NCBI GenBank assembly: GCA_049967415.1
Contig: JBMFSS010000001.1
Coordinates: 69,876 to 133,875 of the forward strand
Length of the DNA: 64,000 nucleotides
Origin: Candidatus Limnocylindrales bacterium
GTDB lineage: Bacteria; Chloroflexota; Limnocylindria; Limnocylindrales; CSP1-4
Reading direction: 5' to 3'
This document shows positions 2,127 through 64,000 of the stretch, piece after piece. The translations under genes were made by a program, and so were the position numbers. Below the pieces are notes generated by a model. It worked only from the letters and a program-made list of their open reading frames with translations. It was not told where the DNA came from and made no database searches. Numbering within the stretch: position 1 is the first letter of the stretch; the number at the start of each line of letters is the position of its first letter.

Positions 2127-4892
2127 TCAGGGGTGCAGCTGCATCTCGGCCTGCAGCATCTTCTTGCCAGGCAGTTCGTGCAGGGTGAACCCCACGTTCT
2201 GCGCGGCCCGCTGCATCCCGACGTTGTCGACCAGCATCTCGGCGCGGATCCAGTCGAGGTGCTCGTCCCGTCCGATCTGGACCAGACGGCGGAGCAGCTC
2301 GGTGCCCAGCCCGGTGCGCTGGCAGCAGTCGGCCACCACGATCGCGAACTCGGCCCCGTTGACCGCGTGCCGCTTGGTGAGACGCGCCACGGCCACCAGC
2401 TCCCGCTCACCGTTGCCGGCGGTGCGCTCGGCAACCAGCGCGATCTCGCGGTCGTAGTCGTTGAAGCAGGCCCGCATCAGCCGCTCGTGCGCGGTGCGCT
2501 CGGCAAGGCCAAGGTCCTTCAGATAGCGGCCATAGACCGTGCGCTCGGAGAGACTCTGGTGGAAACGGACCATCAGCGGCTCGTCCTCCGGCCGGATGGG
2601 CCGGATAGTCATCACGCTGCCATCCACGCCGGTCCAGGTACCGATGTACTGCCGCGGATACGGACGGATCGCCAGTTGCGGGAGCTTCTCGGGCGGGAGC
2701 TTCGGGTCGTTCAGGACCACCCGGGCATCGAGCGCGATCAATCGCTCCGGCGACGCCAGCAGCGGGTTGATGTCGATCTCCTTGATCCAGGGCTGCTCCA
2801 CGACCAGCTGGGAAAAGTGGACCAGCAGTTGCTCGAGCGCGTCGGTGTCAATGGGCTGGCGGCCGCGGATCCCGGCAAACGCCCCGTAGATCTTGGTGCG
2901 CTCCATCATGCGCCGCGCCAGCGTGGTGTTGAGCGGAGGAAGTGCCAGCGCCCGGTCGCGGAAGAGCTCCACCAGCTGGCCGCCCAGCCCGAAGAGCAGC
3001 ACGGGCCCGAACTGCGCGTCCACGCTGCTGCCCAGGATCAGCTCGTACCCCGAGTAGTTGATCATGGGCTGCACGGTGACGCCTTCGAAGTGCTCCGCGC
3101 CGCGGCGTTCCGCAACTGCGGCCTGGATCGCCTTGTAGGCCTCGCGGACGGCTGCGGCGTCGGCCAGGTTCAGCTGCACGCCACCCACATCGGTCTTGTG
3201 GGTGATGGTGTGCGAATACAGCTTGAGCACCACCGGGTAGCCGATCGCCTCTGCGGCCGCCACAGCCGCATCCTCGCTCGGCGCGATGCGCGTCTCGGTG
3301 ATGGGAATGGCATACGCGGCCAGGACCTGCTTTGACTCGAACTCGGTGAGCAGGGTGCGGCCCTCCCGCCGCACCGTCTCGATGACATCCCGGGCCAGGG
3401 ACCGGTTGACGGCGCTGGCGTCATCGTCCGGCATGGAGGGCGTCTCGTACAGCTGGCGGAGCCCGTCGCTGTACCGCCACATGTAGTTGAACATTTCGAC
3501 CGCCGTGTCGGGGTAGAGGAAGGTGGGCATCCCCGCTTCCCGCAGAATGGCCGTGCCGGCCTCCACGTCCGCACCGCCCATCCAGCTCGCCAGGACCGGC
3601 TTTCCCTCGATGTGCGCAAACGGCGCGACCAGCTCCGCGGTCCGCGTGGGATCAGTCATCGCCTGGGGCGTGAGGATCACCAGGAGCCCGTCCGCGTTGG
3701 GATCGCGGGACGCAATCTCGAGCGCCGCGGCGTACCGCTCGGGCGGCGCATCCCCAATGATGTCGACCGGGTTGTTGTGGCTCCAGGGCGCGGGCAGGAT
3801 CGCGTTGAACGCCTCCATCACCTCCGGCGTGAGCTCCGTGAGCTGACCGCCGCCGCCGATCAGGGCGTCCGTGGCGAGGACGCCCGGGCCCCCGGCGTTG
3901 GAAACGATGCTGAGCTTGCGACCCTTCGGCCGTGGCTGTTTGGCCAGGACATCGGCGATCGCGAACAGATCCTGGATGGCGTCCACCCGGAGGACGCCCA
4001 CGCGCCGGAAGGCCGCGTCCAGGACTTCGTCGCTCCCGGTGAGCGAGCCCGTGTGCGAGGCAGCCGCCTTGGAGGCCTGCGCCGTCCGCCCGGGCTTGAT
4101 CACGATGATCGGCTTGGTGAGGGCGACCTCCCGTGCGGCCGACAGAAAGGCCCGGGCGTCGCCCACGGTCTCCATGTAGATCACGATGCTTCCGGTGTGG
4201 GGGTCGTCCCCCAGGTGGTAGATGACGTCTCCCCAGCCAACGTCCAGCATCGAACCCAGCGAGACAACGGAGCTGAAGCCGACCTGCTCGCGCACGCTCC
4301 AGTCGAGGATGGCTGTCAACAGCGCCCCGCTCTGGCTGATCAGGCCCACCGATCCCGGGCGGGCAATCCCGGCGGCAAACGTCGCGTTGAGCCCGTTGGT
4401 GGGATTCATGACCCCCAGACAGTTGGGGCCCACGACGCGGATGCCGCCCCGGCGCGCCTGTTCGAGGACCTGGCGCTCGAGCTCCTCGCCGGCGGGGCCG
4501 GTCTCCTTGAAGCCGGCCGAGATCACGATGGCGCCTTTCACGCCGGCGGCAACGCACTCCTCCATGACGCCCGGAACCGTCTGGGGCGGCGTCACGATCA
4601 CTGCCAGCTCGACCGGATCGGGAACGGCCGCCAGGTTCGGGTAGGCCTTCAGCCCCAGGATGTTGGGGCGCTTCGGGTTGACCGGGAATACGGTTCCCCC
4701 GAAGGGACTGCTGATCAAGTTCCAGAGCACCGTCCGGCCGACGCTTCCCTCCTTCTCGGTCGCGCCGATCACGGCGACCGAATGGGGGGCGAAGAGCGCG
4801 TCGAGCGGTCGTCGCCCGTAGCCCAGGACGTCGCTGGCCATGTCCACTACGGTCGAAGTGCCAACGCGGTCGGCGGACGTGTCAACCATCAT
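2127..4892 (-). CDS. Bifunctional NDP-forming acyl-CoA synthetase-like / GNAT protein lysine acetyltransferase (Pat/YfiQ family)
   Basis: 921 aa. CoA-binding and succinyl-CoA-synthetase-like domains ([24 protein letters not shown]-grasp) are followed by a C-terminal GNAT (AVARLTK...[22 protein letters not shown]). The true start is probably the internal M at residue 18 ([27 protein letters not shown]), around 4841. Confidence 0.85.
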
Positions 4893-5228: not shown

Positions 5229-6188
5229 TCACACCACACGCTCGGCTTCGAGGGCAACCCAGTCGCCCTCCTCCCAGCGGCGCAACAGGTGGAAGCCAGC
5301 CGCGGCCAGAGCGCGTCGCACCTCCGCCTCGCGGTCGGCGATGATCCCGCTCGCGAGCAACCGCCCGCCTGTACCCGGCACGCCCTCCCCGGAGCGCACC
5401 TCCGCGTACAGACCGGCGGCCAGAGAGACCAGGATCGAAGCCACCAGGTTCGCCAGCACCAGGTCGAAACAGGGCTCCCCGGTTGGCACGGATCCCTGGC
5501 GGGCAACGATCCGGCGGGAGAGCCGGTTCCGGCGCGCGTTGGCACGGGTGGCCTCCACCGCCAGCGCGTCGGTATCCACGGCCAGCACAGACGCGGCACC
5601 CAGTCGCGCCGCCGCCAGCGCGAGGATGCCCGAACCGGATCCCACGTCGAGCACGCGAGCCCCGGCCAGCCGGTCTCCGGTCGGTGGGGTCGTCCCGACC
5701 GCGCCGGCCCCTTCCGCATGCCAGGCCTCAAGCCCCACCAGGCAGAGCCGAGTGGTGGGATGCAGTCCGGTCCCGAACGCGAGGCCCGGGTCAAGCACCA
5801 GCACCACGTCGCCAGGCTGTCGGCGGTAGCGGCGCCAGCGGGGCCGGATCACGAACCGCTCGCCGACCCGCAGGACCGGGAAATGCGCACGCCCCTGCGC
5901 GGCCCAGTCCGCCTCGCGCACGACCGCCGCCTGCAGCTCCCCGATGGGGCGGAGCTGAAACGCCTGCAGGTGGGCCAGGGCCGCACGCACCCGCGTCACC
6001 GCGTCGGCCGTCACCTGGCTGCTGGCGCCCGGCAGCCAGGCGCGCACCCGCGCCGGTCGACCGGGGTCGGACAGGGCCGGCAGCCCCCCGTCCCGCAATT
6101 CCAGGCCGGCCTCGATGCTGACGCCGCCGGGGGCCTCGCGGGCCAGGATTTCGGCGATCGCTTCCACCGCCTCCGGGTCGGCGGTCAC
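5229..6188 (-). CDS. prmA: Ribosomal protein L11 methyltransferase
   Basis: 319 aa with the SAM-MTase motif VLDVGSGSGILALAA. It lies immediately downstream of dnaJ, the conserved dnaJ-prmA order. Confidence 0.85.
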   Translation of the reverse strand: MTADPEAVEAIAEILAREAPGGVSIEAGLELRDGGLPALSDPGRPARVRAWLPGASSQVTADAVTRVRAALAHLQAFQLRPIGELQAAVVREADWAAQGRAHFPVLRVGERFVIRPRWRRYRRQPGDVVLVLDPGLAFGTGLHPTTRLCLVGLEAWHAEGAGAVGTTPPTGDRLAGARVLDVGSGSGILALAAARLGAASVLAVDTDALAVEATRANARRNRLSRRIVARQGSVPTGEPCFDLVLANLVASILVSLAAGLYAEVRSGEGVPGTGGRLLASGIIADREAEVRRALAAAGFHLLRRWEEGDWVALEAERVV

Positions 6189-41158: not shown

Positions 41159-41234
41159 GGGGATGTAGCTCAGCTGGGAGAGCACCGCGTTCGCATCGCG
41201 GGGGTCAGGGGTTCGAGTCCCCTCATCTCCACCA
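41159..41234 (+). tRNA. tRNA-Ala (anticodon CGC)
   Basis: 76-nt cloverleaf GGGGATGTAGCTCAGCTGGGAGAGCACCGCGTTCGCATCGCGG...CATCTCCACCA. It has the G3:U70 Ala identity pair, a TTCGAGT T-loop and an encoded CCA. Confidence 0.9.
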
Positions 41235-50752: not shown

Positions 50753-51018
50753 GTCTGACTCCCGAGCGTGCCGCGGGTGCCCCGCGGTCCAGAGACCCGG
50801 ACCCCTGCCTCCCTGCCGCCCAACCGCCCAACCTGCGGTTTCCGGTGTGAGCGGGTCCCTGCTCGGGACGTGCAGGGCTGCGCGTGTGCCCCCCAGGTGC
50901 GAAAGGCCGCGGAACGCTGGCCTGATGGCAGCCGGCCACGAACCACCTGGCAGGGAGCCCCGGGGCAATGGAGCCGCCCTCCGAACCGGCCCTCATGCTA
51001 CACTGTCGCGGCTCCGAT

Positions 51019-51094
51019 GGGGCTATAGCTCAGCTGGGAGAGCGCCTGCATGGCATGCAGGAGGTCCAGGGTTCGAATCCCTGTAGCTCCACCA
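51019..51094 (+). tRNA. tRNA-Ala (anticodon GGC)
   Basis: GGGGCTATAGCTCAGCTGGGAGAGCGCCTGCATGGCATGCAGG...TAGCTCCACCA, with the G3:U70 pair and an encoded CCA. Lies 170 nt upstream of leuS. Confidence 0.9.
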
Positions 51095-51264
51095 CCTTCA
51101 TCAAGCGCCGACCCACAACCCCTCGCCGGAGCGGCGGGGGGTTCGACATAGCAGGGGCCCGCGCCATCGCGACGCCACGCCGTCCCGGTGGCCGCTCGGG
51201 CCCCTCGAACCGGAGAGCCGCGCTGCGTCCGGCGGCAACACGAGGGCAGGAAGCGGGGATCGCC

Positions 51265-53835
51265 ATGGTGACGGACCGGACCCACATCGACCGCTACGAC
51301 CCTGCGACCATCGAGCCGCGCTGGCAGGAGCGCTGGGCCGCCCTCCGGCTCCATCACACCGACCTTGGAGATACCTCCAGGCCCCGCTACTACCTGCTGA
51401 CCATGTACCCCTACCCATCCGGCGACCTGCACATCGGGCACTGGTACATCAAGACCCCCACCGATGCGATCGCGCGCTTCCGCCGGATGAACGGGCTCAA
51501 CGTCTTCTTCCCGATCGGGTTCGACGCGTTCGGGCTGCCTGCCGAGAACGCGGCCATCAAGCACGGCATCCACCCCGCCGACTGGACGATGCGCAACATC
51601 GAGAACATGCGGCGGCAGCTCCGCTCGATGGGGGCCACCTTCGACTGGGACGCCGAGGTCGTCACCTGCGACCCCGAGTACTACCGCTGGAACCAGTGGC
51701 TCTTCCTCAAGTTCCTGGAAGCCGGCCTGGCCTACCGGGCGATGGCGCCCGTGGACTGGTGCCCCAAGGACCAGGTGGTGCTGGCGCGGGAGCAGGTGGA
51801 AGGACCGGACCGCCATTGCTGGCGCTGCGGGACCCCGGTGGTGAAGCGCGACCTGGAGCAGTGGTTCCTCCGCATCACCAGGTACGCGGACGAGCTGCTC
51901 CGCTTCGATGGGATCGACTGGCCCGAGCCGGTGCGGGTGATGCAGACGAACTGGATCGGCCGCTCCGAGGGCGCCGAGGTCGTCTTCCTGGTGGCGCCGG
52001 ACCAGCATCAGCCGGGCGGCGACGAGATCCGGGTCTTCACCACCCGGCCGGACACCCTCTTCGGCGCCACGTTCATGGTGCTGGCGCCCGAGCACCCGTT
52101 GGTGGCAAAGCTGACCCACCCCGACCGGCGCTCGGCTGTGGAGGGCTACCAGTACGAGGCCCGCCGCAAGTCCGAGATCGATCGGCTCTCCACCGAGCGG
52201 GAAAAGACCGGGGTGCCGCTGGGCGCGTTCGCGATCAACCCGGTCAACGGGGAGCGGATCCCGATCTGGATCGCGGACTATGTGCTGCTCGGCTACGGCA
52301 CCGGCGCCATCATGGCCGTCCCGGCGCACGACGAGCGCGACTACGCATTCGCGGTCAGGTTCGGGCTCCCGATCCGCCAGGTGATCGCCCCGTCCGATCC
52401 GGTCGAGGCGGCACGGGTGGCGACGGAGGTCGCCCGGGGAGCGGACGGCGGCACCGCGTTCGTGGCCCACTCCGAGGACGAGGTGATGGTCAACAGCGGA
52501 CCGTACAGCGGGCACTCGGCCAGGGAGGGCTTCGCCGCGATCGTCGCTGACCTGCAGGCGCGGGGGCAGGGCGAGCCAGCGGTGACCTACCGGATCCGCG
52601 ACTGGCTGATCAGCCGCCAGCGCTACTGGGGGACCCCGATCCCAGTCGTCTACTGCGAGCGCGACGGGATCGTCCCGGTGCCGGAGGACCAACTTCCGGT
52701 CCTCCTGCCGCGCGACGTGGACTTCAAGCTGACCGGCGAGAGCCCGCTGAAGTCGCACCAGGGCTTCCTCCGTACGACCTGCCCACGCTGCGGCGGTCCG
52801 GCGACGCGCGAGACCGATACGATGGACACCTTCGTCGACAGCTCCTGGTACTGGTGGCGGTATCTGTCGCCCCACAAGGCCGACGGGCCGATCGACCAGC
52901 AACTCGAGCACGCCTGGTGCCCGGTCGACCAGTACACCGGCGGTGCCGAGCACGCCGTGATGCACCTGCTCTACAGCCGGTTCTTCGCCAAGGCGCTGGC
53001 CGACCTCGGGCTGGTCCACGAACGCGAGCCGTTCCGGCGACTCTTCAACCAAGGGCAGATTCTGGGCGCCGACGGCGAGCGGATGTCCAAAAGCCGCGGC
53101 AACGTCCAGGACCCCGACGAGCTCGTGCAGCGCTACGGCGCCGACACGGTCCGGCTTTTCCTCATGTTCATGGGCCCCTGGGACCAGGGCGGCCCCTGGA
53201 GCTCGACCGGCATCGGCGGCGTGACGCGTTTCCTCAACCGCGTCTGGACTGTGGTCCTCGATCCGACCGGGACCGAGCCCGGGGATCCCGATGCAGGGCT
53301 GCTGCCTCCGGGCGAGCGCGCGGCGGACGGCGAGCGGACGCTCCTGGTGGCGGCGCACCGCACACTGAAGCAGGTCACGGCCGAGTACGAGGACTATCGC
53401 TTCAACACGATGGTCGCGCACCTCATGGAGCTGACCAACCTGCTGATGCGGTACCGGGGGACGCCGGTCGCGGGCAGCGCGGCATGGGATGGTGCGGTGG
53501 AGCTCCTCCTGCTGATGCTGGCCCCATCGGCGCCCCACATCAGCGAGGAGCTGTGGGCCCGACGGCTCGAGGCGCGCGGCGAGACCTGGCGCTCGATCCA
53601 CACCGAAGCCTGGCCCGCCTGGGACCAGGCGCTGGTCGCGGAGGAGAGAGTGGAGCTGCCCGTCCAGGTGAACGGCAAACTGCGCGATCGCGTGCAGGTG
53701 GCCGCCGGGCTCTCCCCTGCGGAGATCGAGGCGATTGTGCTCGGCCGCGAGAAGGTCCGGACGATCCTGGCTGGGCGCACGCCGGATCGCGTGATCCAGG
53801 TCCCGGGCCGGCTCGTCAACATCGTGGTGCGGTAG
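51265..53835 (+). CDS. leuS: Leucyl-tRNA synthetase
   Basis: [24 protein letters not shown]...[13 protein letters not shown] (HIGH motif)...KMSKS (RMSKSRGN). Confidence 0.95.
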
Positions 53836-59119: not shown

Positions 59120-59475
59120 CCCCACCGACTGGCGGACCGGTCGCCGGCCACCCCGGGCGCGCCGCCCAGCCCGCGATTCGTGGATCGGGGCGTAAGCGAG
59201 CGGTAATAGCCGGCCCGTATAGTTTCGCCACCGTCCGCCGAGATCCGAAGTGCCCCGGGCCTCGGCGGACGCGGTGTGTTGGACAAAACGACCCGGCGAT
59301 GGCGCCCGGGATGGGGCCGAGCCTCTGGCCACAGGCTGCCGCACCTGCCATCGCGCCCGCCCGTTGGCACCCATGAGGGCCACTTCGTCGGGCCGGACAC
59401 GGCCACTCTGAACTCCGCCGCAACCTCGCACGGCCCGCATGCTTCCGGGTCGCGCGACCAGCACAGGAGGTCACC

Positions 59476-60195
59476 GTGGACCAGCCTCCCGAGGACCGGG
59501 CCCCCGAGGCATGGCGGTCGATCGACGTGACGCCGATCGAGGAGGCGCCGCCCAGCCTGGACCCGGCAGCCCGTCGCCGGTTCATGGCGCTGGGCGCGCT
59601 GGCGGCGATCTGCCTGCTCGCGACCGCTGGGCTACTGCTCCTCTCGCCCACCGGTTCCGGCCCGGTCGCCGCCGGCAGCGATGGAGGCCCCGCGGGGTCG
59701 GCCACGCCAGCCATCGAGGGGGTCGCCGGACAGCCATCGGCTCCGGGCGCCTGGATGATCGACGTCGGCGGCGCCGTGGCTCGGCCCGGCGTGTACGCCC
59801 TCCCAGCCGGGAGCCGCGTGGCCGACGCGATCCGTGCCGCCGGCGGATTCGGACCGCAGGTCGACGCGAGCGCGGTCACCTCGACGTTGAACCTGGCCGA
59901 AGTCCTCAGGGATGGCCAGAAGATCGTGGTGCCGCAGCGCGGAAACCCGGCGCAGCGCAGTGCAACCGGATCGGCAGCCGGGGCCCAGGGCGGGCATGGC
60001 GCCCTCATCGACCTGAACAGCGCCTCCGCCAGCGAGCTCGACGCCTTGCCGGGCGTGGGGCCGGTGACGGCCGCCAAGATCATCGCGGCCCGGGAGGAAC
60101 GCCCCTTCCGGACGGTGGATGAACTGGCGACCCGGAAGGTGGTCTCCGCCTCGGTGCTCGCCAAGATCCGGGGCCTGGTGACGGTCGGCGGCTGA
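59476..60195 (+). CDS. comEA: Competence protein ComEA (SLBB + helix-hairpin-helix DNA-binding)
   Basis: GTG start with an AGGAGG RBS. TM anchor, then ...IDVGGAVARPGVYALPAGSRVADAIRAAGG (SLBB) and IDLNSASASELDALPGVGPVTAAKIIAAREERPFRTVDEL (HhH2). Confidence 0.85.
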   Translation: MDQPPEDRAPEAWRSIDVTPIEEAPPSLDPAARRRFMALGALAAICLLATAGLLLLSPTGSGPVAAGSDGGPAGSATPAIEGVAGQPSAPGAWMIDVGGAVARPGVYALPAGSRVADAIRAAGGFGPQVDASAVTSTLNLAEVLRDGQKIVVPQRGNPAQRSATGSAAGAQGGHGALIDLNSASASELDALPGVGPVTAAKIIAAREERPFRTVDELATRKVVSASVLAKIRGLVTVGG

Positions 60196-60197
60196 AC

Positions 60198-62849
60198 GTG
60201 CCGCGCACGGGCTGGGCAGCGACCGGTGCGGTTGCCGCCGCACTGTTCGCGGGGCCGGGAGCCGCGGCCCTGCTGGCACCCGGCGAGCCGGCAATCGGAG
60301 CACGCGGCCCGGGCGTGGCCCTTGCCGTGGTCGTGCTCGCGTGCCTGGTCGCGGCGCTGGGAGTGGCCCGCACCTCGAGGCCCACGGTGGCCGTCGGGGC
60401 AGGCGCGGCCCTGGTGGCGCTCCGGCTGGTCGCGGGCTGCCTGCTCCCCATGGCCGCGCCGCCCCTGGCGCTTCCGACGTCGCTGCACGGCGCCACGGTG
60501 GAAGTCCTCTCGATCTCCACGCCCTCGAGCGGGGTCCAGCGCGCGGTCGTCCGTTTCGATGACGGGGCGGCTGGCCAGCTCCGCCTGTACGCACGCCTTC
60601 CGAGATACCCCGAAGTGGCGCCCGGGGACCGGCTGGCGGTGGATGGCCCCCTGCAGCCGCCTCCGTCCAGCACGGGATTCGGCGACTATCTCCGGCGCGC
60701 CGGGATCGCCGGCACGCTGACGGCTCGCCACCTGGAGCGCGTCCCGGCGCCCGATGGGCCCGCGGCGTGGCTGGAGCACCGGCGGCGCGACGCCGGGGAG
60801 CTGCTCGCCCGCGTGCTTCCCGCGCCGCAGGCAGGTCTGGCGGCGGGGATCCTCGTGGGCCTCCGCGACCAAGTGGACCGCGGCGTCGCGGCCGCGTTCA
60901 CGGCGGCCGGACTGACCCACATCGTGGCCATCAGCGGCTGGAACATCGCGATCGTGGCCGCGGTGGTGGCGGCGCTGCTGCGACGCCTCACGCGCCGGCG
61001 GCGCTCCGCCGCGACCCTGGCGGCGATCGTCGCGTACACACTGGCAGCGGGAGCGGGGGCGAGTGTCGTCCGGGCGGCGGTGATGGCGGCGGCCGTGCTG
61101 GGCAGCCGCGAACTCGGCCGCCCGGGGACCGCCGTGGCGGCCCTGTCGCTGGCGACCCTGGCCATGCTCCTGGTCGAACCGGCCGTCATCGCGGATGCGG
61201 GCTTCCAGCTCTCGGTGGCCGCGACCGCCGGTCTGCTGGCATGGGCGACCCGGCTGACCGCCTGGCTGCGCCAGCGCTCAACCTCCACGAGCAGCCGTCT
61301 CCCCGTGCCCGCCTGGCTGATCGATTCACTTGGGGTCTCGCTGGCCGCGCAGGCCGCGACCCTCCCACTGATCCTGCTCGACTTCGGGCGGGTCTCGCTG
61401 GTGTCCCCGATCGCCAACCTCGCCGCGGCGCCACTGGTCGTGCCGGTCATGGCAGCCTCGGCTGCCGCGCTGGCAGCAGGCTGGCTGGTCTCCCTGGGAG
61501 CGCCCCCGGCACTGGGCGCCATCGCGGGCTCGGGAGGGGCCGTGGTGCTCGGTGCGCTGGTCGCAGTGGGCCGCATGGCCGCCGCCGTGCCGGGCGCCAG
61601 CGTCACCCTGGGAACGCCGGTCGCCCAGCTGTTTGCCCTGATCGCGGCGGCCGGCGTTGCGCTCATCGGCGTGCCGCAGCTGCGCAGGCAAACCCTCGGG
61701 GTGGCTGCTGTCGCGATCATGCCGGCGCGGCGCGGGCCGCCCGCCGGGATCCCGGGTCCCGCACCGGGCACCCCGCCCGGGCCGGCGGAGGCCGGCCTGC
61801 GCGGTGCCAGCCGCACCTCCCGGACAACGCGGCCCGGGCACTCCCGAGATGGTCTCGGCCGGACCGCAGCGACCGACCCGCTGACGCGCATGCTCCGGCC
61901 CCTCGCGTTGTTCGCGCTGGCGGGGCTGGTGGCGCTGGTCCTGGTGGCCGCCGCACGCCCCGACGGCCGGCTGCATGTCTCGATCCTGGACGTCGGACAG
62001 GGGGATGCGATCCTGCTCCAGGGTCCGTCGGGCGGCCGCATCCTGGTTGACACGGGACCCGATCCGGAGCGGCTGCTCCCGCAGCTCGATGCGCGCGTGC
62101 CGGCCTGGGATCGGCGACTGGACCTGCTCCTGCTGACGCACCCGCACGAGGACCACGTGGGAGGGGCGGCGGTGCTGCTTCGGCGCTATCGGGTCGCCCG
62201 GATCGCGGAGCCAGGGATGCGCGGCACCGGGCCGGGATGGGATGCCCTGGTGGCCGAGTTGGGCCGCCAGGGCCGGACCACGTGGCATCCGGCCGCCGGA
62301 AACCGGATGCGCCTGGACGGGGCCTCCCTGGCAGTCCTCTGGCCCCGCCGGGGCGAGGTCCCCGAAACGCCGGGTGCAAGCGGCACTGCGGTCAACAACG
62401 TCTCGGTCGTCCTCGATGTCCGATACGGGGCACGCCGCATCCTCTTGATGGGAGACGCCGAGCAGGAGGTGGACGCCGCGTTGCTGGCCGACGGCAGCCT
62501 GTCGGCCAGCCAGCCCCGGGTTGACCTGCTCAAAGTGGCCCACCACGGCAGCCGCACGGCCACCACGGCGCCGTTCCTGGCCGCCGCGCGGCCCAGGGTG
62601 GCCGTGGTCAGCGTGGGCGCGGACAACACCTTCGGCCACCCGGCCCGGGCCACGCTCGATCGGCTGCGCGCCGCGGGCGCCCGTGTCCTGCGAACCGACC
62701 GGGACGGCCCCGTCAGCGCGACCACCGACGGGGCGGACCTGCGCATCGAGAGCGCCACGGGTGCCTGGATGGTGACGTCAGGGTCCCCTTCCGCGGCCGT
62801 CACCGGGCCGCGCACCCCAGCGCCCAACGAGCCGGCCCCGGGTTGCATA
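60198..62849 (+). CDS. comEC: DNA internalisation channel ComEC/Rec2, but no in-frame stop codon; the 3' boundary is inferred (possible frameshift or pseudogene)
   Basis: Manual translation from the GTG at 60198 gives a competence domain (GLTHIVAISGWNIAIVAAVVAALL), multiple TM segments, and a metallo-beta-lactamase domain (LDVGQGDAILLQGPSGGRILVDTGPD...LLLTHPHEDH...VAHHGSRTATTAPFLAAARPRVAVVSVGADNTFGHPARATLDRLRAAGARVLRTDRDG). This frame stays open through the HD gene and into holA, which is why it is absent from the ORF track. Confidence 0.7.
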
Positions 62850-62859
62850 GAATCTCCCC

Positions 62860-63489
62860 GTGGTTCCATCGCGCGCGGAAGCAGCCGACATACTGCTCGA
62901 TCTCGATCCCCCCGAGTGGTTGCTGGCGCACGTCGCCGCCGTCGCGGAGGTCGCATCGTTCCTGGCCGAACGATCCGCGGCGCGCGGCATCGCAGTCGAC
63001 CGGGAACTGGTGGAGGCCGCGGCCCTCCTCCACGACATCGACAAGTTGCTGCCGCCGGACGATCCCGTCCAGGAGCTCGGTCACGGCGCGGCCGGCGCGC
63101 GCTGGCTGAGCCAGCGCGGCTACCCCGAGCTCGCCCGTGCCGTCGCCGCGCACCCGATCACACGCCTTCTCGATGCCGATCGCTACGGCCGATGGAATGG
63201 CGTTGCCACGCGGGAAGAGCGGATCGTGGCCTACGCCGACAAGCGAGCCGGCCAGCGGCTCGAGGCGATGAGCGCCCGTTTTGCGGGCTGGGCGGCACGG
63301 TACCCGGAGTATCGGGAGAGCCTTGCGCGTGCCCGGGCAAGGGCCGAGCGACTGGAGCGCGAAGTGTGCGAGACCGCCGGAGTGAGCCCGCTCGCCGTCC
63401 GACGCCTGCGGTGGGTCGGCCCGACGCTGGACGCTGCGCGCCGGCGACGGGACCCGGCCAGGGCAGCATCCAGCACGGGCCGGCCCTGA
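62860..63489 (+). CDS. HD-domain phosphohydrolase (YqeK-like)
   Basis: 209 aa, ...HVAAVAEVASFLAERSAARGI...AALLHDIDK...RIVAYADKRAG..; HD motif. Confidence 0.75.
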   Translation: MVPSRAEAADILLDLDPPEWLLAHVAAVAEVASFLAERSAARGIAVDRELVEAAALLHDIDKLLPPDDPVQELGHGAAGARWLSQRGYPELARAVAAHPITRLLDADRYGRWNGVATREERIVAYADKRAGQRLEAMSARFAGWAARYPEYRESLARARARAERLEREVCETAGVSPLAVRRLRWVGPTLDAARRRRDPARAASSTGRP

Positions 63490-63527
63490 ACGCCGCTTCC
63501 GGGGCCGAGACCGCCGGATCCACCGCC

Positions 63528-64000
63528 GTGCCGATCCCGGTTGCCTATTTCTGGGGCGACGACGCGCTGTTGTTGCGCCGGGCGGTGGAGCGGTTCGCGC
63601 GCCAGACCGCTCCCGGCGAAGCGCCGCTTGAGCGCTGGCGGGCGAGCCCCCTCGAAGCGCAGGGGTTCGACGCGATTACGCAACGCCTGGGGAGCGCCCC
63701 GCTCTTCGGCGGCGGCCTCTGTGTGGTGATCTCCGAGCCGCTGGCGATGCTGCGATCCCGCGCGGAGCAGGACCGAGCGGTCGCGTTGCTCCCCTGTGTG
63801 GCGCCCGGCAATGCCCTCGTGTTCACCGAACTGGTGGCCAGCGGGGCCGGGGAACCGGGAGCCGCGTCCGGCCGGCTCCGCGCCGCGATCGAGCAGGGCG
63901 GGGGTGTGGTGCGCCGACTCGAGGCGCCTCGGGCCGGCCAGCTGGAACCCTGGGTCGCGCAGCACGCCGCGGACCTTGGAATCCACATCGAGGCAGCGGC
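63528..64000 (+). CDS. holA: DNA polymerase III delta subunit (HolA), N-terminal part; partial at the window end
   Basis: Manual translation VPIPVAYFWGDDALLLRRAVERFARQTAPGEAPLERWRASPLEAQGFDAITQRLGSAPLFGGGLCVVISEPLAM... matches the HolA N-terminal clamp-loader domain. It is in the same frame as comEC and has no stop before the window end. Confidence 0.6.
   Translation, partial: MPIPVAYFWGDDALLLRRAVERFARQTAPGEAPLERWRASPLEAQGFDAITQRLGSAPLFGGGLCVVISEPLAMLRSRAEQDRAVALLPCVAPGNALVFTELVASGAGEPGAASGRLRAAIEQGGGVVRRLEAPRAGQLEPWVAQHAADLGIHIEAA

Follow-up and report, generated by a model that had tools for sequence, protein, structure and literature searches.

The comEC locus and its open reading frame

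The window analyzed here, a stretch of 64,000 nucleotides (nt) from contig JBMFSS010000001.1 of a Candidatus Limnocylindrales bacterium, carries toward its end the competence gene comEC, a gene for an HD-domain phosphohydrolase (the HD gene) and the 5′ part of holA, all downstream of comEA (Table 1). Translation of the ComEC frame from its GTG at 60198 to position 64000 gave 1,267 codons and no stops. When stops were listed by frame, none lay in the ComEC frame (coordinate mod 3 = 0) from 60120 to the window end, and 15 and 13 were found in the other two frames over 59400-64000. A preliminary description made from the letters had claimed as much, namely that comEC lacks its own terminator and that its frame, after passing through a genuine HD gene in another phase, merges in frame with a genuine holA, and both claims held. 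Comparison of 80 loci indicates that this is very probably the usual, inherited condition of comEC in the class Limnocylindria (high-GC Chloroflexota).

The DNA past the last conserved ComEC residues reads GGT GCC TGG ATG GTG ACG TCA (...G-A-W-M-V-T-S) and continues without a stop into the HD gene. That gene (GTG at 62860, TGA at 63487-63489) sits +1 relative to ComEC and is crossed out of frame. The spacer between the HD gene and holA is 38 nt long and stop free in the ComEC frame, and the holA start, GTG at 63528 (VPIPVAYFWGDD...), lies 41 nt after the first base of the HD stop (≡ 2 mod 3), which places holA in the ComEC frame. Re-examination of 62770-62860 for an in-frame stop, which would have overturned the stop-less reading, found none; a TGA at 62773 and a TAG at 62848 are both in the +1 frame. 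As the preliminary description supposed, the stop-less frame had been hidden in the open reading frame (ORF) track, since the ORF lister leaves out ORFs that run off the window.

Table 1. Features of the comEC-holA region of the window (positions in the whole 64,000-nt stretch)
Feature	Position	Strand	Remarks
comEA	59476-60195	+	Upstream in operon; NCBIfam TIGR01259
comEC, conserved and folded part	60198-62777	+	Residues 1-860; OB-fold, competence channel, C-terminal metallo-beta-lactamase nuclease domain
TGA in the +1 frame	62773-62775	+	Just past the ComEC fold; outside the ComEC frame and not the stop of comEC
In-frame ComEC tail	62778-62859	+	Pro/Ala/Gly-rich linker TSGSPSAAVTGPRTPAPNEPAPGCIESP; reads through the putative HD promoter; stop free
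TAG, second +1-frame stop	62848-62850	+	Within TTGCATAGAATC
TAGAAT, putative -10 box of internal promoter	62848-62853	+	6 nt upstream of the HD start; GTTGCATAGAATC invariant in the clade
Peptide at the ComEC/HD junction, ComEC frame			...AASGAETAGSTAVPIPVAYFWGDDALLLR
HDIG/HD-domain phosphohydrolase gene (HD gene)	62860-63489	+	209 amino acids; TIGR00277; +1 frame relative to ComEC
Run-on of the ComEC frame	62860-63527	+	Arg-rich out-of-frame reading of the HD gene plus the 38-nt spacer; stop free
CGA in the ComEC frame	63033-63035	+	Spans the H-D motif codons CAC GAC; TGA in relatives with CAT GAC
holA (DNA polymerase III delta), 5′ part	63528-64000	+	Cut by the window end; same frame as ComEC

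The ComEC translation scored 209.3 bits against TIGR00361 (ComEC_Rec2; cut-off, 190.05), with model positions 426-663 of 663 aligned to residues 578-837, and 76 bits against the N-terminal domain model TIGR00360 (cut-off, 36.5). Both the THPHEDH motif of the metallo-beta-lactamase (MBL) domain and the KVAHHGS motif were found, and PF13567, PF03772, PF00753, and PF12706 are recorded on ComEC relatives. An AlphaFold2 (AF2) model of ComEC with 34 tail residues had a mean predicted local distance difference test score (pLDDT) of 85.1 and a predicted template modelling score of 0.83. The last beta-strand of the model comprised residues 856-860, and from residue 863 on the pLDDT was ∼33. According to the model, the folded part of ComEC is complete and ends near nt 62777, with a disordered tail beyond it. 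A second segment with pLDDT below 50 (61746-61868; residues 517-557), rich in Pro, Gly, and Arg, sits between the channel domain and the helix preceding the MBL domain.

The HD protein scored 40.6 bits against TIGR00277 (HDIG; cut-off, 27.6) and retains the metal-binding H..HD motif as LLHDIDK; PF01966 is recorded on the syntenic genes. The NCBIfam search of this protein returned the domain-level HDIG model only, with no equivalog and no YqeK model among the matches. It is far more conserved than ComEC, with identities of 91 to 94% within the clade versus 66 to 83%. For holA, the 157 amino acids within the window matched TIGR01128 with an E value of 5e−8 and a score of 32.6 bits (cut-off, 80); the full-length syntenic holA of relatives has PF21694 on record, and tblastn found holA in nearly all loci. 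The gene upstream of comEC matched TIGR01259, a comEA subfamily model, with an E value of 8e−19 and 67.8 bits, under its 152.35-bit cut-off, and SLBB and HHH_3 Pfam domains are recorded on the syntenic comEA gene of relatives. Synteny was kept as comEA-comEC-HD-holA followed by a convergent gene of 84 amino acids, rsfS, nadD, and obg. The fixed place of the HD gene between comEC and holA, near rsfS-nadD-obg, was conserved across the class.

The comEC 3′ end across Limnocylindria

The closest homologues came from metagenome-assembled genomes (MAGs) of Chloroflexota labelled Limnocylindria or Limnocylindrales, with the best ComEC 83% identical. None of the 18 closest database homologues (58 to 83% identical) had a stop after the MBL domain, and none had one before the promoter motif. 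Most of them read ...PGCIESPRG...ARGS.RH.ARSRS..., which corresponds to the intergenic DNA followed by the 5′ end of the HD gene out of frame. For a wider survey, GTDB species genomes were scanned with an alignment of the HD protein, which returned 80 loci; these were pooled with loci obtained via ComEC homologues and with the window. The final set consisted of 80 nonredundant loci with a ComEC C terminus and an HD gene, 79 of Limnocylindria type plus the window.

The comparison with orthologous comEC 3′ ends that the preliminary description had proposed thus found most relatives stop-less too, with the ComEC frame running past the HD start in 67 of the 80 loci. The first ComEC-frame stop lay before the HD start in 13 loci (at least 6 of these as an ATGA overlap with that start), within the HD gene in 46, where it was scattered from +173 to +650, and just past the HD gene in 3. 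It was the HD stop itself in 6 loci with ComEC in frame with HD, and in 12, including the window and locus L055, both of which run off their sequence, it was at or beyond the holA stop after all of the HD gene. All main states were seen both in contigs with short-read-style names (NODE_, k141_, scaffold) and in contigs with long-read-style names. With the same arrangement recurring in 67 of 80 loci, the missing stop is very probably not a defect of this sequence.

Two further observations concern individual loci of this set. In L006 (6501-7148), L026, L057, L069, L080, and L082, ComEC is in frame with HD with no stop between them, and a direct ComEC-HD fusion polypeptide may be possible beside the HD protein made from its own promoter. 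In L015, L047, L052, and L075, all long-read-style MAG contigs, the C-terminal region of ComEC was recovered as two tblastn segments rather than one, which may reflect frameshifts or insertions within ComEC in these assemblies and has no bearing on the stop-less tail.

The loci were then sorted by the phase of the HD gene relative to ComEC. In the +2 phase, ComEC stopped no later than the HD start in 10 of 15 loci, with an ATGA overlap in at least 6 of the 15, and in phase 0, 6 of 8 read into HD in frame. Of the 57 loci in the +1 phase, which is that of the window, 56 overlapped the HD gene by a long stretch. Overlaps in this phase can never be short, and they lengthen with GC content (Fonseca et al. 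2013, PMC3887535). A stop in the +1 phase requires an HD codon with T at its third position and, directly after it, one that begins with AA, AG, or GA. The HD gene of the window has 40 such following codons, none of which is preceded by a T-ending codon, T being at the third position of 8% of its codons. HD codons end in G or C in ∼87% of cases, and NNT codons are further avoided before GA, AA, and AG. The commonest stop offset in relatives was a recurrent one at +173, where a TGA arises within CA[T GA]C of the H-D motif. In the window this usual stop is absent because the His is encoded by CAC.

Out-of-frame stops numbered about 1.4 per HD gene, and about one-quarter of genomes had none; 15 of 55 same-phase loci were open across the whole HD gene. 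As controls, 27 other genes of the window were used, these being long ORFs rich in G and C at third codon positions (GC3) that a crude gene finder took as genes within 2129-59116. Their stop frequency in the same relative frame was 0.0071 per codon, from which the probability of meeting no stop in 209 codons is 0.23. Without an upstream stop, an open frame across HD is therefore unremarkable. Most +1 loci have holA in frame with ComEC, by way of a TGATG junction or, in the window, the 38-nt spacer, and therefore once HD has been crossed the ORF usually continues to the holA stop.

Synonymous resampling of the window HD gene gave a lower probability of an open frame (0.04), with 15 of 55 loci open versus 1.8 expected. 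This was considered as a sign of selection and dropped, since the 27 window genes, holA, and the body of ComEC are equally stop depleted. In the same frame the 27 genes had 83 stops versus 141.5 expected (ratio, 0.59), and in the other alternative frame 220 versus 230, which fits. In the loci compared, the observed/expected ratios were 0.46 for HD, 0.45 to 0.49 for holA, and 0.43 to 0.58 for the ComEC body. The depletion in the 27 genes points to a codon-context bias against NNT before GA, AA, and AG. The controls thus show no excess stop depletion in HD and no selection in favor of the run-on. HD genes that ComEC enters had 1.45 stops per gene in that frame versus 0.8 in the other phases (p = 0.03), and this higher count could reflect weak selection to end the run-on.

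The ComEC tail and the putative promoter of the HD gene

From the end of the ComEC fold to the start of HD, 73 of 80 loci had an open ComEC frame, versus 37 and 48 for the other two frames. In 51 of the 80, the tail contained the motif F-x-C-[AG]-[IV]-P, located 40 to 88 residues past the RTDxxG motif (for example, L005:3816-3833, L007:4947-4964, and L004:6063-6080). The codons of this Cys motif vary: Cys is TGC in 40 cases and TGT in 12, Ala is GCG, GCC, GCT, or GCA, Pro is CCG, CCC, CCA, or CCT, and the x position is free. Upstream of the motif, no ComEC-frame stop occurred in 1,218 codons, versus 9 and 5 stops in the other frames. At the sequence level, this pattern indicates a translated and selected peptide. 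In loci of the +2 phase the motif overlaps the -10 box of the HD gene (TGC GCG GTA CCA TCG), and the ATGA at the start of HD supplies the stop of ComEC. The window holds only G-C-I-E-S, at 62839-62853, in place of the full motif. GCIES was considered as a protein motif in its own right and set aside, since GTTGCATAGAATC is also invariant -10-region DNA.

A more far-reaching proposal would make the Limnocylindria ComEC tail functional, with a selected Cys motif (G-C-I-E-S in the clade of the window), presumably on the extracellular side, serving for covalent attachment or partner binding; keeping that motif fused to the promoter would force comEC to be stop-less, and ribosomes would make ComEC chimeras reaching into HD and HolA sequence. 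AF2 predicted the tail to be disordered both in the window and in P0031, a relative whose ComEC stops naturally right after the Cys motif, and the disorder in P0031 included the motif itself (residues 830-864; pLDDT, 30 to 38). In neither of these two models was the tail or the Cys motif docked onto the folded protein. We regard this proposal as unlikely.

A hexamer of the form TANNNT was present upstream of the HD gene in all 80 loci. It ended 6 to 7 nt before the HD start in 79 of them and 9 nt before it in the remaining one; only 0.24% of control ATG/GTG sites have such a hexamer. The hexamers were TACCAT (n = 52), TAGAAT (n = 15), TACGAT (n = 6), TATCAT (n = 4), and others (n = 3). In the window, the TAG of TAGAAT falls in the HD frame, and ComEC reads the box as ..C-I-E-S... 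A Shine-Dalgarno sequence (GGAG, GAGG, or AGGA within -16 to -4) was found at only 1 of 80 HD starts. Promoters of leaderless mRNAs have been described as TANNNT hexamers centered 7 to 12 bp upstream of the start codon (PMC3898074). Together, the sequence features suggest that an HD(-holA) mRNA is transcribed from an internal promoter and is leaderless. A scan of 62400-63700 for consensus promoters and terminators found nothing; the promoter part of the scan demands a -35 element and is uninformative for promoters consisting of TANNNT only, and the lack of a hit argues against an intrinsic terminator.

That last result bears on the possibility that the comEC message ends between the ComEC fold and the HD promoter, with the stalled ribosomes rescued by transfer-messenger RNA (tmRNA), which may keep ComEC low. 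Such an end would save the cell from translating over 1.2 kb of meaningless sequence, and it would agree with a tail that is disordered and poorly conserved. Against it stand the negative terminator scan, the lack of significant structure at the junction, and the loss of the protein that a tmRNA tag would bring about; the stop-free tail also suggests that ribosomes are expected to pass through it. An early mRNA end is accordingly quite improbable.

The explanation that we consider very likely is an intact comEC with an inherited, class-wide stop-less tail that holds the promoter of the next gene, the phase and the high GC3 together producing the run-on ORF. The disordered, translated tail would extend to the HD start and enclose the -10 box TAGAAT. 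Being kept open up to a promoter only 6 nt from that start, it would leave next to no space in which comEC could have a stop of its own. With the tail reaching as far as the HD gene, it is the comEC/HD phase that fixes the possible stop sites of ComEC. In the +1 phase, seen in 57 of 80 loci, a short overlap is impossible, and the frame enters the HD gene until it meets an accidental out-of-frame stop. The GC3-rich HD codons seldom create one, and in the window the H-D-motif stop is missing as well; with a stop-free 38-nt spacer and an in-frame holA, the open frame would go on to the holA stop beyond the window. Expression of HD and holA would depend chiefly on a leaderless mRNA started at the internal promoter. 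Ribosomes reading through from comEC would leave a membrane protein of low abundance with a disordered extension that serves no purpose, making the run-on a neutral or slightly costly by-product. An old, fixed, lineage-wide phase change probably removed an ancestral overlapping ATGA stop.

Several observations weigh against this explanation. In the tail, GC content hardly differs among the three codon positions (0.74/0.72/0.75), and because of this the coding status of the tail in the clade of the window rests on its stop-free frame and on indels in multiples of three. The sole conserved tail residues of that clade, G-C-I-E-S, are inseparable from promoter DNA. All relatives are MAGs, with no cultured, finished genome among them. 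Synonymous entropy was lower in the first 57 HD codons (1.23 versus 1.39 bits; p = 0.014), which could hint at an overlapping-frame constraint, and ordinary 5′-end effects explain it equally well. Finally, run-on translation, leaderless initiation at HD, and the place where the comEC message ends are inferences from sequence comparison.

The preliminary description had instead favored a fault at the comEC 3′ end and had raised the possibility that comEC is a pseudogene, or is undergoing inactivation in this organism. Without a terminator, any product would indeed bear a long aberrant extension. Neither a stop nor a frameshift interrupts the 857 conserved residues, however; the score exceeds the curated cut-off for ComEC, the catalytic MBL motifs are kept, and the AF2 fold is confident and complete. 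The arrangement also persists in species whose ComEC is ∼50% identical yet full length, which would not be expected of a decaying gene. A pseudogene is, on this evidence, highly improbable.

The fault itself had been placed near 62.77-62.86 kb, as a +1 or -1 indel; a private one due to sequencing or assembly error could have shifted the true stop, for example the TGA at 62773 or the TAG at 62848, out of frame. Errors of this kind often lie behind 3′ extensions (PMC2478687), and a TGA does lie in the +1 frame 5 nt past the last conserved residue, followed by the TAG at 62848 in the same frame. The closest relative, L001, comes from a different metagenome and has a ComEC 83% identical to that of the window; the two sequences aligned with no gaps over 221 nt spanning the junction. 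Relative to the window, L002 and L003 had gaps of only 18 and 33 nt, both multiples of three. Measured between the RTD motif and the start of HD, the spacer takes seven lengths in the clade (136, 151, 169, 172, 211, 214, and 238 nt), all in one phase. The +1-frame TGA at 62773 was found in L001, and the segment holding it is missing from L002 and L003. In L001 and L003 the ComEC frame stops 173 nt into HD. With the stop-less state present in 67 of 80 loci, from many independent assemblies of both styles, the private indel is largely refuted and retains a very small probability.

Recoding, in which a programmed +1 frameshift would end ComEC at the +1 TGA or TAG or would fuse ComEC to HD, is just as hard to sustain. 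It could draw on the excess of the +1 phase (57 of 80 loci have HD in the +1 frame, and 8 have it in frame with ComEC), on the open ComEC frame across the HD start, on the six loci with a direct in-frame ComEC-HD ORF, and on a CCC-C run at 62856-62859 in the window. Within the clade, however, the 6 to 7 nt before the HD start vary freely (CTCCCC, CCCCTC, CCACTC, CGAGGC, and others), and neither these bases nor the nonconserved +1 TGA fit the slippage-prone site that the preliminary description had also suggested. The zero-frame stops are scattered, a conserved promoter and start codon belong to HD itself, and the phase excess is explained by indels of multiples of three only in a translated tail, together with shared ancestry. 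No structured RNA, riboswitch, or frameshift stimulator was detected at the junction: it had no Rfam match, and the predicted fold of 62740-62900 was no better than those of shuffled sequences (z = −0.53). The only Rfam matches in the window were two tRNA genes on the forward strand (41159-41231 and 51019-51091), the second of which lies within a stop-free, GC3-rich stretch (50926-53832) that the crude gene finder treated as a gene.

A functional run-on, whether as a dual-coded, selected extension of ComEC or as a ComEC-HolA chimera with a role of its own, is scarcely credible: the 12 of 80 loci open into holA and the slightly lower synonymous variability of the first 57 HD codons would fit it, but the stops inside HD are scattered from +173 to +650, HD is no more stop depleted than the control genes, entered HD genes carry more stops, the open fraction (15 of 55) matches the chance rate of 0.23, and the C-terminal domain of ComEC, described as extracellular (PMC8579336), is not where a subunit of the replication clamp loader would belong. 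A dual-coding role for the 5′ part of HD was likewise set aside, its sole signal being the drop in entropy, which was judged too weak.

Relation to known gene overlaps

Pallejà et al. (2008, PMC2478687) examined 715 co-directional overlaps of more than 60 bp, 68 of them due to a 3′ extension of the upstream gene, and judged all 715 to be errors, the extended gene being longer than its orthologues. The comEC overlap resembles their 3′-extension category (category iii) and the always-long phase (PMC3887535) in that the upstream ORF runs to the first accidental stop; as in the latter, a short overlap is impossible and high GC lengthens it. It differs from the cases of Pallejà et al. in that the orthologues share the extension, in 67 of 80 loci, so that the comparison by which those overlaps were recognized as artefacts gives the opposite result here. 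The overlap ranges from 173 nt to the whole downstream gene plus the next one.

Start-stop junctions of the ATGA, GTGA, or TGATG type, common in operons, occur at comEC-HD in about 6 of the 80 loci, and many TGATG junctions occur at HD-holA. A start-stop overlap is likely the ancestral state of the comEC end. The window departs from this arrangement in that its phase is off by one base and the TGA of GTGA is out of frame (GTG G, 62860-62863).

The putative HD promoter resembles those of TANNNT leaderless mRNAs in Mycobacterium tuberculosis (Cortes et al. 2013, PMC3898074) and Deinococcus deserti (PMC4007540) in its spacing of 6 to 7 nt and in having neither a Shine-Dalgarno sequence nor a recognizable -35 element. 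Unlike in those organisms, it would lie inside the translated tail of the upstream gene, and the evidence here is comparative only. The run-on also resembles the shadow ORFs of GC3-rich genes, in which the frame whose first position falls on the third codon position of the gene is stop poor; the ComEC frame can therefore cross 209 HD codons. Unlike a shadow ORF, this open frame is continuous with a real, translated upstream gene, and ribosomes may enter it. We class the comEC overlap as an unusually widespread and extreme case of a known type of long co-directional overlap and not as a new mechanism, because its extent is not conserved and there is no sign of selection on it.

The run-on has consequences for annotation. 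Gene callers in this class yield "ComEC" proteins of 1,100 to 1,450 amino acids bearing HD or HolA domains. Public examples that derive from the run-on include P0040 and P0115 (1,445 to 1,447 amino acids, with the HolA domain PF21694) and P0054 (1,215 amino acids, with the HD domain PF01966). The HD gene was left uncalled in L002 (6615-7241), L005 (∼3946-4578), and L007 (5062-5721), and in L003 it was truncated, its call beginning at 5363 rather than at 5234; public calls lose or shorten the gene wherever the ComEC ORF passes over it. Awareness that the lack of a stop is natural here averts two opposite mistakes, the dismissal of comEC as a pseudogene and the annotation of a ComEC-HolA fusion protein. 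The main value of the finding lies in this annotation warning and in a conserved example of a long co-directional overlap. At the level of the class, the comEC locus provides a conserved counterexample to the rule that co-directional overlaps of more than 60 bp are errors, and it would show how a promoter embedded in a translated tail, combined with high GC content, can leave a gene stop-less.

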